A stretch of 64,000 nt of DNA from an uncultured Chloroflexia bacterium (GTDB lineage: Bacteria > Chloroflexota > Limnocylindria > Limnocylindrales > CSP1-4). Within the stretch, counting starts at the first letter, position 1. Each line of letters starts with the position of its first letter. The stretch is from NCBI GenBank assembly GCA_963775225.1, contig CAVZHW010000002.1, positions 211,909-275,908 of the forward strand, given 5' to 3'. Positions 49,061 through 58,205 of this stretch are shown in pieces. The translations under genes were made by a program, and so were the position numbers. The notes beneath the pieces were generated by a model. It was not told the DNA's origin, ran no database searches, and saw nothing but the letters and a program-made list of their open reading frames with translations.

Positions 49061-50452
49061 GTGAGTTCGCCAGCACTGCCCGTTCGAGAGGGGGCGGAAG
49101 CCGGCCGCCCAACCCGTGCGTTGCCGTGGACGCACCTGCTCAACCTGTCGGTCTACTGGTTGGGCATCAACGTCATCTGGTCGGGCCTGGGCTACGTCAT
49201 CTTCCAGGCCCGTTTCAACGCCATGTTCGGCGAGACGCTCGGCCCATCGTATGTGGCCTTCCTCGAGGTCATCCCGCTCGCCGTCGCGATTATCGTCCAG
49301 CCGACCGTCGCGGCCATCTCCGACTACACGGTCACGCGGTGGGGCAGGCGCAAGCCGTACATCCTGGCCGGCGGCCTGCTCGACATCGTCTTCCTGGCCG
49401 GCATCGCGGCGGCGAACGACTTCGTGGCCATCGCCGCCTTCGTCCTGCTGCTGCAGTTCTCGTCCAACTTCGCCCAGGGCCCGTTCCAGGGTTACGTGCC
49501 CGACCTCGTACCGGAACGCCAAGTGGGCGTGGCGAGCGGCCTCATGGGCGTGATGATCATCGGCGGCCAGGTGGCCGGGGTCGGCATCGCCACGCTCGGC
49601 CTGCTGGCGCCCAACCCCTATGCGCTGGGGACGCCCGACGCCGGCTCCTTCGCCCAGGCGCACTTCTTCCTGCCGACGCTCGGCCTGGCGCTGATCGAGA
49701 TCGTGACCATGGTGCCCATCCTGCTGTTCGTCGACGAAGGTCGCCGCGCCCCGTCACGGGACGGCAGGTCGTGGCTCAAGATAGCCATGTCCACCTGGAG
49801 CCTCGACGTCCTGCGCGAACGCAGCTACGTGTGGTTGCTTGTGTCGCGCCTGTTCTTCCTGATGTCGGCGGCAATGGTCACCTATGCCGGCATCTACTAC
49901 CTCGAACGCTCGCTGGGTCTCAGCCAGGACGAGACGGCGCTGCCGCTGGCCATCATCGCCGCGGTGCTCGGGGTCACGACCGGCATCGTCACGTTCCCGG
50001 CCGCACGCCTGTCCGATCGCGTCGGGCGCAAACGCATGATCTATGTCGCGACTGGCGTCGGCACCCTGGGCGTGCTGGGGGTCGCGGCGGCACCGTCGTT
50101 CGCGGTCATGCTCGCCGCGCTGGTGCTGGTCGGTGTTTCGTCGGGCGCGTTCCTGGCCGTCGACTGGGCGCTCATGACCGACATCATTCCCAAGGCGACG
50201 GCCGGCCGCTTCATGGGCCTGTCCAACGTCGCCACCGCGCTGTCCGGCCCGGTCAGCCGAACGACGGGCGGGCTGCTGCTCACGGTACTCGTGCTGGTCG
50301 GTTTGCCGGCCGACGCGCCGCCCGGAGCCCCTGCAACGGCAAGCAGCCTCTATGCCGCCGGACCGCGCATCGCCATCGGCCTGACCGTGCTGTTCTTCGC
50401 CGTCTCGGCCTGGGCGCTGCGCCACGTGGACGAGCACCGCCGCGAGGAGTAG
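49061..50452 (+). CDS. MFS-type transporter (about 12 TM)
   Basis: GTG start. There are 12 hydrophobic segments. Loop motifs: DYTVTRWGRRKPYIL (D-R/K-x-G-R-R/K-like, between TM2 and TM3) and SDRVGRKRM (TM8-9). Confidence 0.8.
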   Translation: MSSPALPVREGAEAGRPTRALPWTHLLNLSVYWLGINVIWSGLGYVIFQARFNAMFGETLGPSYVAFLEVIPLAVAIIVQPTVAAISDYTVTRWGRRKPYILAGGLLDIVFLAGIAAANDFVAIAAFVLLLQFSSNFAQGPFQGYVPDLVPERQVGVASGLMGVMIIGGQVAGVGIATLGLLAPNPYALGTPDAGSFAQAHFFLPTLGLALIEIVTMVPILLFVDEGRRAPSRDGRSWLKIAMSTWSLDVLRERSYVWLLVSRLFFLMSAAMVTYAGIYYLERSLGLSQDETALPLAIIAAVLGVTTGIVTFPAARLSDRVGRKRMIYVATGVGTLGVLGVAAAPSFAVMLAALVLVGVSSGAFLAVDWALMTDIIPKATAGRFMGLSNVATALSGPVSRTTGGLLLTVLVLVGLPADAPPGAPATASSLYAAGPRIAIGLTVLFFAVSAWALRHVDEHRREE

Positions 50453-50475
50453 GCGGCGGCCGATCAAACACCCCG

Positions 50476-50585
50476 ATGCCGGCACTATCGGCACGGATGC
50501 ACTCTCTACCTGGCGTTGCCGCTCCCAGCGGCCCTCCGCCCATGCCGTTCCCTGAGCAGCGGCCCGGTGACGATAGTGCCGGCAT
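50476..50585. repeat. 15-bp perfect inverted repeat (ATGCCGGCACTATCG / CGATAGTGCCGGCAT) separated by 80 nt in a convergent intergenic region
   Basis: Direct reading at 50476-50490 and 50571-50585, between the 3' ends of the MFS gene and the kinase gene. Confidence 0.8.
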
Positions 50586-50605
50586 TGAGTACGCCTGCGG
50601 CGTAA

Positions 50606-51127
50606 CTAGGGTGCGCGCCGAACGCGCTCGACGCGCGCATCCGTGACGGCCTCGGGCGAGCGCAGCACGTACAGCGCGGCGTAGTTCTTCGCGGGCAGGG
50701 CTGCCAACGTGGCCGGCATCCGCGCGGCCTGGCGTGCCACCACGTCATCGTCGACCGTCCGCCCGTCGCGCAGCGAGTTGTGGCGCACGTAGGCCTCCGT
50801 AGGAAAGTCGAAGGCGATGGCGACGGCCGGCACGCCGTAGCGCTCGGCCATCCGGCGGAAGCGTGTGCGTGACGGGGCGTGCAGGTTCGTCGCATCGACC
50901 ACGGTCATCAGCCGTCGACCCAGCCTGGACTTGGCGATCAGTTCGACGACCTTGAAGGCGTCGGCCGACGCCGACTGGTCGGCCGGGTCATCGGCCACCA
51001 GCGCGCGAGCGAAGTCGCTCGAGACAATCTCGGTCGTGGAGAAATTGCGCGCGGCAAAGGTCGATTTGCCCGCGCCGGACGGCCCGACCAGGAGCACCAA
51101 CGCTGGATCGGGAATGGCCAGTTTCAC
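50606..51127 (-). CDS. Stand-alone P-loop kinase resembling the kinase module of bacterial polynucleotide kinase-phosphatase (Pnkp)
   Basis: The GTG start overlaps the vapC stop (GTGA). The sequence is MKLAIPDPALVLLVGPSGAGKSTFAARNFSTTEIVSSDFARALVADDPADQ...LMTVVDATN...AVAIAFDFP...YVLRSPEAV. From memory, this is colinear with the N-terminal kinase domain of Clostridium thermocellum Pnkp (LVVLIGSSGSGKSTFAKKHF..EVISSD..R....DDENDQ...VVDATN). There are no phosphatase or ligase domains. Confidence 0.6.
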   Translation of the reverse strand: MKLAIPDPALVLLVGPSGAGKSTFAARNFSTTEIVSSDFARALVADDPADQSASADAFKVVELIAKSRLGRRLMTVVDATNLHAPSRTRFRRMAERYGVPAVAIAFDFPTEAYVRHNSLRDGRTVDDDVVARQAARMPATLAALPAKNYAALYVLRSPEAVTDARVERVRRAP

Positions 51128-51501
51128 GCGCCCAGGACGGGCACCCCGTACTGCTCGAACCGCGTGTCGCGAGTGACGATTGTGAGACCTTCGATCGTGG
51201 CCTGGGCAATCAGCATGCGGTCGAACGGATCCCTGTGGTGGGGCGGGAGCGTCCCCGCCGCAAGGCTGTGCTGCTGAGTGATCGGGAGAGGCTCGAAACG
51301 GCTGGCCTCGATCGTCGCGACGAGGTCACCAGAGATTTGCAGGCGGCCGTTGGCCTGCTTGATCGCCAGCTCCCACACCGACGCCGCGCTTACGAACACC
51401 TCATTGGACGGGTCGCGGATCGCATCTCGGGCCTCCGCGCGCAGTTGCTCGGGGGCCTCGAGCGACCAGAGAAGGGCGTGGGAGTCGAGCAGGAGTCTCA
51501 C
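51124..51501 (-). CDS. vapC: PIN-domain toxin VapC
   Basis: MRLLLDSHALLW..., SAASVWELAIK, DPFDRMLIAQA, IVTRD: the acidic PIN residues are spaced as in VapC toxins. The GTG start overlaps the antitoxin stop (GTGA). Confidence 0.88.
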   Translation of the reverse strand: MRLLLDSHALLWSLEAPEQLRAEARDAIRDPSNEVFVSAASVWELAIKQANGRLQISGDLVATIEASRFEPLPITQQHSLAAGTLPPHHRDPFDRMLIAQATIEGLTIVTRDTRFEQYGVPVLGA

Positions 51502-51767
51502 TCGGCCGCTGACGTGCCCGGATCGTCCGGTAAGAGTTCACCCTCCTCGAAGTCCCGGATGATCTCGTCATCCACTTCGTCGAAATCGGGCGCGATCCAG
51601 ATCTTCCCCTTCAGGAGTCCGAGCGGGCGCGGCTCAGTCATGGGTTGGTACGCGACAAGTCTGGCGAGGGGCTTACCCGACCGGGCGATGACGACATCCT
51701 CGCCGGCAGCCGCTCGGTCCACCAGTCGCGACAGATGAGTCTTGGCCTCGTGGATGTTGACCTTCAT
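51498..51767 (-). CDS. Phd/YefM-type antitoxin
   Basis: MKVNIHEAKTHLSRLVDRAAAGEDVVIARSGKPLARLV is the typical Phd/YefM N-terminus. The ORF 51498..51785 was trimmed to ATG at 51767 (alternative GTG at 51785). Confidence 0.85.
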   Translation of the reverse strand: MKVNIHEAKTHLSRLVDRAAAGEDVVIARSGKPLARLVAYQPMTEPRPLGLLKGKIWIAPDFDEVDDEIIRDFEEGELLPDDPGTSAAE

Positions 51768-51786
51768 CGAGCGGCATCGTAGCACG

Positions 51787-51811
51787 CTGGACTGGACTTA
51801 GTCCGGTCCAG
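51787..51811. promoter_or_regulatory. Near-perfect 25-bp palindrome, a putative antitoxin operator immediately upstream of the TA operon
   Basis: CTGGACTGGACT T AGTCCGGTCCAG, with 11 of 12 arm positions complementary. It lies 20 nt upstream of the antitoxin ATG. Confidence 0.5.
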
Positions 51812-51922
51812 TCCCGCGTGGTCACCCCGTAACAGGTAGTGGGCACTCCGGAGCGCGCTACGCTGCGGTCCATATGACCGCCATCGGCAATGGCCCACGC
51901 GTCTGACCGGCAGGGTCGGCAC

Positions 51923-52735
51923 TCACACAGGGCGCCTGTGCTCGACAACGAGGCTCGCGATGAGCACGGCTCCAGCAGCGGTGACGGTCAGCGTTCCAGT
52001 CTGGCCCAGCAGCAGTAGGAGGCGGGTATCCGACGACAATCCAACGCCGACTGTCGGCGACTGCGACGCGGCCGTCGGCCCCTCCGCAGCGGCTTGTGGG
52101 ACGGGAAACACGCCGGGCTGTGTCAGGTCGATGGGACCCGCCGCGGCACCGCGCCACGCGGCGAAGCCGAGCTCAACCGCACCAAGGACAAGGCACGCGG
52201 CAACGAGCCCGATCACGAGGGCCTGCAGCGAGCGCCCGACGATGAGCGCGACCAGGGTACCCACGGCGAACGCGGCGATCGCGCGGGCGGGAATGAGCAC
52301 GGCGGCGGTGTCGATACTGGCGGGCGCCGAGGTCGCGTCGAGGGTCGGGCCCAGTGATCCGCCCAGGATCACGCTCACCAAAACGAGTGGGACGGTGATA
52401 ACGACGAGCGCGAGCAGTCCTGCCGTCAGCAGGTCGGCCAGCCAGCGCCTGCGGCTGCCGACGACCGACCAGGCAAAGACGGACGTTCCGCTATCGATCT
52501 CGCCGGCGATGAGCGACGCTGCGAAAGAGAGCCCCGCGACAACCGGCAGGCAGACCAGCGCCACTTGAAAATAGGGCACCCATTGCAGCCAGTCGAACTC
52601 GGCCGCGGTTCCCTGTGCTTCCGTCAGCTCGCGCGTCAGGGCGAGGCCCGCGGCCGAGACCAGGAAGACGGCGCCAAGGGCCAGGATGAGCTCGAGCCGC
52701 AGCCTCCGAACCAGGATGCGGACGGGCCACGTCAT
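51923..52735 (-). CDS. ABC-2-type transporter permease, paralog 3b
   Basis: There are 6 hydrophobic segments. It carries the block AGEIDSGTSVFAWSVVGSRRRWL. Confidence 0.7.
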   Translation of the reverse strand: MTWPVRILVRRLRLELILALGAVFLVSAAGLALTRELTEAQGTAAEFDWLQWVPYFQVALVCLPVVAGLSFAASLIAGEIDSGTSVFAWSVVGSRRRWLADLLTAGLLALVVITVPLVLVSVILGGSLGPTLDATSAPASIDTAAVLIPARAIAAFAVGTLVALIVGRSLQALVIGLVAACLVLGAVELGFAAWRGAAAGPIDLTQPGVFPVPQAAAEGPTAASQSPTVGVGLSSDTRLLLLLGQTGTLTVTAAGAVLIASLVVEHRRPV

Positions 52736-52740
52736 GCTCG

Positions 52741-53646
52741 CTACGGCCGCCGGTCGCGGGTCATCTTGAATGCCAGGCCGCCGAACACGAGGGCCACAAC
52801 GGTCAGGATCGCCGACTCGCGCAACTCAACCGCTGGCATCTGCGAGCCCGCCAGGAAGAGCTCGCCAGCGGGACAGTTCGCGGCCTCCCACGCGTTTCGC
52901 TGGCTGCCATCGGGATCAGCTCCGAACGACGGCTCCGCGGCCATGCAGTCAGACATCGGTATGAATCGCCCGTCGGGCGTGAGGGCCCCATACTGGACAG
53001 ACATTGCCTCGCTCGTCGTCGGATCGGTGATGGGGATCAGCCTGGCTGGCTCAAACGCCCGGCCCATGATGAGCGCAGCCGTGGTCACCACGGTCACCAG
53101 CACCAGCGCGACCGAGAAGGCTGCCACGACGCGCCCGGAGCGGATGCCGATGGCGAGACCGATGGCGTAGCCGCACAGCGCTCGGATGGCGAGGATGGGG
53201 CCCCACAGGCCATAGGCGACGAAGGTGGCCGCGATGTCGTGGTCCGGATTGAGCCGGGCCACGATGAATGCGTTCGCCGCGCCACAGGCGAGGCCGAACA
53301 CGACGATGGCCACGCCATCCACCAGGACCCGTTCAGAGAGCCAGCGCACCCTGCTGCGAGCGATCGACCAGGCGAACGCCGCTGTTCGCTGCTCGATCTC
53401 ACCGCCGACGGCGGCGACGCCGAGGATCAGGCCGAGGAAGATGGGCGCGACCGCGATGACGAACGTCAGCGCCGTCGAAGGCGGATTCGCGTTGAGATAG
53501 CGTTCGCACTTGTAGGTAGACAGGGAGGGATCGCAGGCAATGGTCGTCGCGTAGAAGACGCCGACGGTCGCGGTCACGATCGCCACCGCCAACACCAACA
53601 GAACCAACCGCCGATTTGTCCGCCACCACAGCCTGAAGACGGTCAT
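52741..53646 (-). CDS. ABC-2-type transporter permease, paralog 3a
   Basis: It carries the block GGEIEQRTAAFAWSIARSRVRWL. The start overlaps the ATPase stop (ATGA). Confidence 0.7.
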   Translation of the reverse strand: MTVFRLWWRTNRRLVLLVLAVAIVTATVGVFYATTIACDPSLSTYKCERYLNANPPSTALTFVIAVAPIFLGLILGVAAVGGEIEQRTAAFAWSIARSRVRWLSERVLVDGVAIVVFGLACGAANAFIVARLNPDHDIAATFVAYGLWGPILAIRALCGYAIGLAIGIRSGRVVAAFSVALVLVTVVTTAALIMGRAFEPARLIPITDPTTSEAMSVQYGALTPDGRFIPMSDCMAAEPSFGADPDGSQRNAWEAANCPAGELFLAGSQMPAVELRESAILTVVALVFGGLAFKMTRDRRP

Positions 53647-54488
53647 CCGGGCGAACCTCGACCGGCGGCGAGGTAGCCGAGCACGACATCCTCCAGGTTG
53701 GCCGCCCGGGCGTGGACCGGGCGTCCGTCGGCAGCTCCGCGGAAGAGCTGCGAACGGTCGGGCAGGCGAGCGACGAGCGCGGCGCCTTCCGGGCCAGGCT
53801 CATCGCTGACGAAGTGGTCCTCCAGGATGGCGTCGACGCTGCCCTGGAGTTGGACGCGCCCGGCGGCCAGGACCACCAGCCGGTGGCACGCACGTTCGAT
53901 GTCCGAGACGATCTGCGACGAGAGCACGGCCGTCGCCCCGGTCCGGGCGAGCTCGTCGGTCAGCACGTCGATGAACTCGCGCCGGGCGAGCGGATCGATG
54001 GACGCGAGCGGTTCATCGAGGATCAACACCTCGGCCCGCAGGCCCAACGCGATAGCGAGGCCGACCTGGGCCGCCTGGCCCCCCGAAAGCGTCCCGGCCA
54101 GGGCATCCAGGGGGACGCCGAGATCCGCGAGTCGTTGCGTTGCGAGGCGGCGATCGAAACTCGAGCCGCGGTAATGGGCCACGTAGTCGAGGTGGTCGCT
54201 CACGCGAAGGTCGCGATACAGCGCAGGTGTCTGGGGGAGGTACGCGACATGGCCAAGCACGGCAGCTCGTTGCCGCCACGGATCGATGCCCAGCACGCTG
54301 ACGGAGCCCCGGGTGGGACGCTCGAAGCCGACCCAGGTCTTGAGGAGGGTCGACTTCCCGGCGCCATTTGGCCCGACCAGTCCGATGGCACCGCCGGAGC
54401 CCAGGGAGAGGTCGACGTCACTCAGCGCCCAGACGCCCTGCCGATACTGCTTTGAAAGGCCCTGGGCCTGCAATAGGGCGTCCGGCAT
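53643..54488 (-). CDS. ABC transporter ATP-binding protein, paralog 3
   Basis: This is the ORF 53643..54587, trimmed to ATG at 54488 (MPDALLQAQGLSKQY). Motifs seen: GPNGAGKST, LSGGQAAQV, VLILDEPLASID, LSSQ. Confidence 0.85.
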   Translation of the reverse strand: MPDALLQAQGLSKQYRQGVWALSDVDLSLGSGGAIGLVGPNGAGKSTLLKTWVGFERPTRGSVSVLGIDPWRQRAAVLGHVAYLPQTPALYRDLRVSDHLDYVAHYRGSSFDRRLATQRLADLGVPLDALAGTLSGGQAAQVGLAIALGLRAEVLILDEPLASIDPLARREFIDVLTDELARTGATAVLSSQIVSDIERACHRLVVLAAGRVQLQGSVDAILEDHFVSDEPGPEGAALVARLPDRSQLFRGAADGRPVHARAANLEDVVLGYLAAGRGSPG

Positions 54489-54647
54489 GTTCTTCTTGCT
54501 CCTCCGCACCCAATGAGCATCCCGGATGCTCATGCAGGCTAGGACAGGGGAGCCAGTCCCGGCGGTGCTGTTCGGCCCTGGTGCCATGTGCCGGCCGTCA
54601 TCGGTTGCCAGCCGGCCGGGCGGCCCGGAGGGCCTGGACTTAGCTCG

Positions 54648-58201
<3,554 letters not shown>

Positions 58202-58205
<4 letters not shown>

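Follow-up and report, generated by a model that had tools for sequence, protein, structure and literature searches.

In canonical VapBC modules with Phd/YefM-fold antitoxins, known from enteric bacteria and Mycobacterium tuberculosis, the antitoxin gene comes first and overlaps by 4 nt the gene of a ~125-aa PIN toxin with four acidic residues, a palindrome overlaps the promoter, and the modules have a patchy, mobile-like and multi-copy distribution. The pair described here shares these traits, its palindrome being a candidate operator at a putative promoter, and is unlike canonical VapBC only in its location, as the cassette abuts a resident kinase gene. We consider it very likely that the locus consists of a canonical, self-promoted VapBC cassette that inserted beside a resident stand-alone Pnk-type kinase gene, the two being probably read together and forming no dedicated three-part system.

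Several toxin-antitoxin (TA) operons do have a third gene that travels with the TA pair: mazE-mazF-mazG, toxin-antitoxin-chaperone (TAC), omega-epsilon-zeta and paaR-paaA-parE. The likeness to these operons is a third gene co-transcribed downstream of, or with, the TA pair; unlike in any of them, the third gene here is the resident and the TA pair the visitor. A precedent for an RNase-kinase logic of the kind proposed for VapC and the kinase is Las1-Grc3 of eukaryotic pre-rRNA processing, in which a HEPN RNase and a 5'-OH RNA kinase are coupled both physically and in function. It differs in that its nuclease is HEPN and not PIN, in that its kinase belongs to the Clp1/Grc3 clade, and in an obligatory co-conservation that is not seen at our locus.

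For the kinase itself, the described counterpart is CthPnk, the 5' end-healing part of the Pnkp-Hen1 system of Clostridium thermocellum (PDB 4GP7, 4GP6, 4JST, 4MDE). The two are of equal length and share the P-loop GxSGxGKST, and D38, R41, T80, Q51, F58, V129 and the lid arginines R120/R123 are common to both. Unlike C. thermocellum Pnkp, the kinase studied here stands alone, without phosphatase and ligase modules, and Hen1 was not found in its genome.

A VapBC pair and a kinase gene in overlapping frames

The window is the whole stretch of DNA that was analysed, 64,000 nucleotides from an uncultured Chloroflexia bacterium. On its minus strand (50606-51785), an initial annotation had recognised three consecutive genes, for a Phd/YefM antitoxin, a PIN toxin and a 173-aa P-loop kinase, joined by two stop/start overlaps. 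The ORF listing and the sequence bear out the three genes and both overlaps: a GTGA at 51498-51501 joins phd to vapC, and another at 51124-51127 joins vapC to the kinase gene, the TGA of vapC overlapping the GTG of the kinase. The features of the locus and its surroundings are the following, in window coordinates.

50476-50585, no strand assigned: long hairpin with a 15-bp perfect stem, in the gap that separates the kinase gene from the convergent MFS gene (fold MFE -76.5 kcal/mol, z = -3.0)
50606-51127, minus strand: stand-alone Pnkp-type 5'-OH polynucleotide kinase (predicted), 173 aa (AAA_33 2.5e-24; TIGR04075; PDB 4GP7)
51124-51501, minus strand: vapC PIN toxin, 125 aa (Pfam PIN 1.1e-19)
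51498-51767, minus strand: phd/vapB antitoxin, 89 aa, start revised to ATG (PhdYeFM 3e-10; TIGR01552 1.8e-8)
51776-51784, minus strand: putative TGn-extended -10 box TGCTACGAT, 8 nt before the ATG (TGCTAAAAT in the related locus L002; also present in L003)
51789-51814, minus strand: palindromic operator candidate GGACTGGAC-N8-GTCCAGTCC, with perfect 9-bp arms and GGAC/GTCC units, adjoining the -10 box on its upstream side
51874-51906, plus strand: remnant of a divergent UbiA-family gene, first ~9 codons (MTAIGNGPR); intact in L003 and L124-L127
51923-54587, minus strand: ABC-transporter block (ATPase and two permeases; ORF listing) between carB and the TA cassette; this is context, outside the three-gene unit

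The TA pair belongs to the canonical type II Phd/YefM-VapC(PIN) modules and, as a TA finding, is nothing unusual. VapC has the PIN acidic tetrad (D6, E44, D94 and D112, all invariant in its orthologues), and the overlapping upstream gene encodes a small antitoxin with a DNA-binding N-terminal domain (Pfam PhdYeFM_antitox 3e-10) and a match to the VapB C-terminal motif (1.8e-4). Two further VapC paralogues are encoded in the window's own genome. Screening with the PADLOC defence models gave no matches for VapC and Phd, and only marginal P-loop matches for the kinase (mad8 and mad3, E about 5e-4).

The antitoxin most likely starts at ATG 51767 (89 aa) and not at GTG 51785 (95 aa; ORF 51498-51785), because that GTG sits in the -10 box and because the gene call of a relative and 12 of 12 orthologues open with MKVNIHEAK. 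Since the box lies only 8 nt before this ATG, the antitoxin mRNA would be leaderless or nearly so. A scan of positions 50300-52200 returned no consensus sigma-70 -35/-10 pair, so the promoter call draws on the conserved TGn-extended box together with the palindrome. The palindrome is kept with the cassette in all three loci where VapBC adjoins the kinase gene (the window, L002 and L003), and it is likely the VapB/VapBC operator.

The 4-nt overlaps are genuine yet unremarkable, as they are the default operon junction of the window's genome: within 8 kb the same overlap joins carA to carB (58202-58205) and the two genes of an ABC ATPase/permease pair (53643-53646). At other loci the kinase start also overlaps the stop codon of the upstream gene, be it carB (L064), SRAP (L046), the gene of a 409-aa membrane protein (L088) or a 167-aa ORF (L124). 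All three genomes with VapBC at the kinase gene preserve the exact GTGA at which vapC and the kinase gene meet. Co-transcription, which the initial annotation had deduced from the overlaps, is plausible. As no consensus promoter or terminator was found between vapC and the kinase gene (scan of 50300-52200) and a strong hairpin follows the kinase gene, the kinase gene probably shares a transcript and translational coupling with vapC in the window, in L002 (genome G089) and in L003. This hairpin (50476-50585) is likely the 3' end of the kinase transcript; T-tract terminators gave zero sites in the same scan, the hairpin region included. Overlapping stop and start codons call for caution here, as they indicate co-expression and not common function.

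Relation of the kinase to Pnkp modules

The 173-aa protein had been described as colinear with the N-terminal kinase module of bacterial Pnkp, and profile comparison agrees with this: it aligns with positions 1-170 of the 851 of the bacterial Pnkp model TIGR04075 (E 4.3e-48), and its residues 1-168 align end to end with PDB 4GP7, the C. thermocellum Pnkp kinase domain (E 1.5e-33). The 4GP7, 4GP6 and 4JST structures are matched at E about 1e-33, gap-free and with 39% identity; 4MDE was also matched. Mammalian PNKP and T4 Pnk rank far below the Pnkp kinase modules and no small-molecule kinase is comparable in score, which answers the question whether the protein is a small-molecule-kinase look-alike: it is not, and its best matches are Pnkp modules. 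With 164 bits against the 750-bit cut-off of TIGR04075 and an ORF that ends at 173 aa, the protein is, by its profile matches, outside Pnkp proper and belongs as a stand-alone form to the CthPnk-type polynucleotide kinases.

The residues that work in CthPnk have been assigned in a study of its Michaelis complex to the P-loop (K21/S22), to general base catalysis (D38), to R41 and T80, to the lid arginines R120/R123 and to nucleobase contacts (Q51, F58, V129) (PMC3902929). All of these residues are present in the window kinase. When 20 stand-alone homologues were aligned, G15, S17, G18, G20, K21, T23, D38 and R41 were invariant, as were Q51, F58, D78, T80, R120, R123 and V129; S22, present in the window protein, was nearly invariant (at least 90%). 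The sequence blocks that the initial annotation had singled out as shared with Pnkp correspond to the P-loop, the D38/R41 acceptor motif and the D78-T80 motif, and all are kept. Three contact positions differ from CthPnk in the window kinase (R116H, Q83H and Y128D). Given the homology to the Pnkp module and the conservation of donor- and acceptor-site residues, we predict an active 5'-OH polynucleotide kinase.

The protein might instead phosphorylate a small molecule or a protein in vivo, as an AAA_33/Zeta-like enzyme to which RNA ends are irrelevant. The three substitutions at acceptor and donor contacts would fit such a role, as would the placement by Pfam in the broad AAA_33 family only and the lack of RNA-repair partners in the genus genomes searched. 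Nevertheless, the best matches are by far Pnkp kinase modules, with mammalian PNKP and T4 Pnk next in rank, and the acceptor-strand residues D38, R41, T80, Q51, F58 and V129 are invariant in the family, which makes this alternative unlikely.

The kinase had also been noted to lack the phosphatase and ligase modules, with no hen1 nearby, and this extends to the genomes searched. Pnkp phosphatase and ligase modules were absent from the window's genome and from 12 other genomes of the genus (13 in total), bar a lone 39-residue match to TIGR04075 positions 813-851 in G153; Hen1 (TIGR04074) had no match in the window's own genome and RtcB was not found in 7 genus genomes, all genomes compared being MAGs (the window's own is 68% complete), so that the absence of a partner gene may be an assembly artefact. 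A dispersed Pnkp-Hen1 system was considered and ruled out, as no full-length or split Pnkp was found in the 13 genus genomes and no Hen1 in the window's own; an 'anti-RtcB' role of the kinase was likewise ruled out, given the lack of RtcB in the 7 genomes.

Linkage of the kinase and VapBC across genomes

Stand-alone homologues of the kinase number 1,842 proteins of 95-303 aa in a large protein collection, many of them labelled Limnocylindria or Limnocylindrales (Chloroflexota); they occur in Chloroflexota and a few other phyla. The gene is found in 73 of 151 sampled genomes of the order and in 15 of 15 sampled genomes of the genus. Downstream of it, close relatives conserve a convergent MFS transporter gene and two M16 peptidase genes. 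The upstream neighbours vary among about 46 loci, surveyed with a crude GC3-based ORF caller, a Pfam check on representatives only and locus orientation by tblastn: they include carB, a Rieske-type membrane protein, a 400-aa membrane protein, a divergent photolyase, UbiA, MFS, an LCP protein, an SRAP peptidase, a Kelch-repeat protein and a second AAA_33 kinase. The kinase gene is a lineage-wide resident of this Chloroflexota group, with a fixed downstream and a variable upstream flank.

Among the order genomes sampled, a VapC homologue adjoins the kinase gene only in the window's genome and in G089 (locus L002), whose kinase is 86-88% identical to that of the window; a further metagenomic relative, L003, has the same VapBC-kinase arrangement with a kinase 76% identical. 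Of the about 46 kinase loci, VapBC is linked to 3, which come from soil Chloroflexota that are close relatives and form a single shallow clade. The view from the toxin is similar. All 12 VapC orthologues elsewhere in the family (47-62% identity) have a Phd orthologue directly upstream and share the same ...VL.A-TGA end, and none has a kinase gene within 1.5 kb (0/12); the TA pair therefore forms a cassette of two genes that is complete in itself. The common end of the 12 orthologues, at the same ...VL.A-TGA position, also rules out that the VapC C-terminus was remodelled to reach the kinase start.

The initial annotation had seen an RNA-end-modifying kinase hard-wired to an RNase toxin, suggestive of a three-component system, and had called for a survey of its synteny. 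The proposal is not supported by this comparison: the kinase mostly occurs without VapBC, no VapBC orthologue among the 12 has a kinase, and synteny is confined to three very close relatives (the window, G089/L002 and L003). A third TA component is expected to be co-conserved across independent genomes, and this one is not (3 of about 46 kinase loci, 0 of 12 toxin loci).

A caveat had been attached to that proposal as well, namely that PIN nucleases generally leave 5'-phosphate ends, which would need no 5' kinase. This part is weaker than stated. In a study of M. tuberculosis, VapC products were reported to carry 5'-OH ends and the targets of VapC-mt11 were found in 5'-OH libraries (PMC6459853), so the chemistry of VapC leaves a link to the kinase possible; what the caveat argued against, a role of the kinase on VapC products, is still disfavoured by comparative genomics.

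A genuine three-component unit, at least in the subclade, would have the kinase phosphorylate VapC-made 5'-OH ends and so tune toxicity or recovery. Reported 5'-OH products are the substrate type of such a kinase, which keeps all polynucleotide-acceptor residues; moreover, the 4-nt overlaps at both junctions are conserved in the window, L002 and L003, with one promoter/operator before phd and a hairpin only after the kinase gene. Set against this are the restriction of the linkage to a few loci of one shallow clade, its absence from all 12 orthologous VapBC loci, and a kinase start that overlaps whichever gene is upstream. The closest relative without VapBC has another gene at the site and others have it empty, the TA pair of L003 decays beside an intact kinase gene (both described below), and no ligase, 3'-phosphatase, Hen1 or RtcB was found that would complete or oppose a repair path. 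We thus regard such a unit as quite improbable, and just as doubtful its detailed forms, in which phosphorylation marks fragments for 5'-P-dependent decay, or prevents or enables their religation. Any functional coupling of the kinase with VapBC is, on the same footing, decidedly unlikely.

The proposed insertion site and working of the locus

The preferred reading, insertion of a self-contained cassette beside the resident kinase gene, can be followed at the site itself. In L125, L126 and L127 (kinases 69-74% identical) the site is empty: a divergent UbiA-family gene starts only 23 nt away from the kinase GTG. In L003, an insert of ~730 bp lies between these flanks; it is made up of the palindrome, the -10 box, phd and vapC, and its end falls exactly on the kinase start. 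L124, whose kinase is the closest to the window's after G089 (85% identical), has at this place an unrelated ORF for a 167-aa protein with a signal peptide and no Pfam match, the stop of which overlaps the kinase start. In the window, the UbiA remnant (51874-51906) marks, on sequence evidence, the old left border of the insertion site, the rest of the UbiA gene being replaced by the three-gene ABC-transporter block. Gene insertion seems to have a minor hot spot just 5' of the kinase start.

A tree of 47 sequences groups the VapBC-linked kinases in a single shallow clade (support 99/98), which lies within a genus-level clade of carB- and UbiA-linked kinases in which carB linkage prevails. When extra relatives were added, L124 fell inside the VapBC-linked clade, from which we conclude that a single gain of the cassette was followed by at least one loss or replacement, with the kinase gene persisting. 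Decay is also apparent in L003, where phd has a +1 frameshift and VapC a D112Y change at an invariant PIN acid, while the kinase gene is intact; the TA pair thus appears to be decaying there, although this is a long-read MAG and the indel is possibly an error.

The nested position of L124 can be turned around: the VapBC-kinase arrangement could be ancestral and functional, and the empty or otherwise occupied sites could be secondary losses. The small tree needs two changes to account for the VapBC state, and L124 implies at least one loss or replacement. However, the outgroups L127, L005, L006, L085 and L064, and all other genera, are without VapBC linkage; and even if the arrangement were ancestral, the kinase would survive without VapBC, which argues against dependence. 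We hold this alternative to be most improbable.

By the insertion reading, VapBC would have entered in one shallow subclade such that the native TGA of vapC came to overlap the GTG of the kinase. As a consequence, the autoregulated TA promoter, or else read-through from upstream, would now drive transcription of the kinase gene, and its translation would be coupled to that of vapC. From what is known of the family, VapB would bind and neutralise VapC and repress the operator, and free VapC would cleave a tRNA or rRNA target. The kinase, judged by its conserved residues, would act independently and transfer the NTP gamma-phosphate to 5'-OH ends of RNA or DNA, with K21/S22 and Mg2+, D38 as the general base, R41 and T80 holding the acceptor strand, and R120/R123 in the lid; its role would be a housekeeping end-healing step. 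We read the co-expression of VapC and the kinase as regulatory capture by insertion and not as a sign of shared function.

The same arrangement might alternatively be a young three-gene unit, in which the kinase is produced together with a PIN RNase and phosphorylates the 5'-OH ends that VapC leaves on cleaved tRNA or rRNA. If this were true, the fragments would be committed to 5'-P-dependent decay, or recovery would be altered, and an RNase-kinase pairing comparable to Las1-Grc3 would be seen at its evolutionary origin; we think it very unlikely.

The modest value that the locus retains lies in the kinase, as a member of a large stand-alone CthPnk-like family present in about half of the sampled genomes of the order. 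To our knowledge, no kinase of this stand-alone form has been characterised. A lone 5' end-healing kinase might serve in RNA turnover or in DNA end processing. In some sources, the stand-alone kinase is mislabelled as a 'protein phosphatase'.

Variable cargo 5′ of the kinase gene

On the 5′ side of the kinase start codon, the cargo differs among close relatives, as seen in the window and in loci L124, L007 and L125 from other genomes:

window 51124-51814: VapBC
L124:482-985: 167-aa signal-peptide protein without a Pfam match
L007:3409-4242: Kelch-repeat protein, on the opposite strand
L125:1816-1838: empty site

This position has the look of a minor hot spot for insertions; no recombinase was in view at the site. 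The window also retains a gene fragment:

window 51874-51906, + strand: remnant of a UbiA-family prenyltransferase gene, nine codons (MTAIGNGPR)

In L003 and in L124-L127, the UbiA-family gene is complete and divergent from the kinase gene, and in the window the remainder of this gene has been replaced by an ABC-transporter block (51923-54587).

State of the cassette copy in L003

The phd-vapC copy found in L003 (3359-4004) looks decayed: a one-base insertion truncates phd at 44 aa, and VapC carries a D112Y substitution at an invariant acidic residue of the PIN domain. The kinase gene downstream of these altered genes is intact. The indel in phd could be a long-read assembly error. Separately, in a long-read MAG, carB is broken into several ORFs (L004/L005, 1369-4004), probably through indel errors, a case showing that frameshifts are unreliable in such long-read assemblies.

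Hairpin between the kinase and MFS genes

The convergent kinase and MFS genes are separated by a region containing the following element:

window 50476-50585: long hairpin with a 15-bp perfect inverted repeat

The hairpin (MFE -76.5 kcal/mol, z = -3.0) is without a T-tract and may serve as a bidirectional transcript end or as a stabiliser.

Architectures, neighbours and naming of kinase homologues

ORFs of about 420-475 aa were observed in L011, L012, L020, L023, L041 and L044, a length between those of the stand-alone kinase (~170 aa) and full-length Pnkp (~850 aa), and this intermediate architecture is present in Gemmataceae, Methylococcaceae and other lineages. Judged by their length, these ORFs could encode a kinase and a phosphatase without the ligase module. 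In a Planctomycetaceae MAG (L052:2087-3173), a gene for a 149-aa AAA_33 kinase precedes that of a stand-alone Pnk-like kinase, so that this second AAA_33 kinase and the Pnk-like kinase, both small P-loop kinases, are encoded in tandem. Three family genomes (L104, L110 and L111; G109, G133 and G036) have the kinase gene divergently adjoining a gene whose product, as read from its sequence alone, looks like a DNA photolyase/cryptochrome, a neighbour that weakly hints that the stand-alone kinase acts in DNA repair. Finally, one source gives many stand-alone kinase homologues in the protein collection the name 'protein phosphatase', which looks like a mislabel and probably arose by annotation transfer from full-length Pnkp, which includes a metallophosphoesterase.
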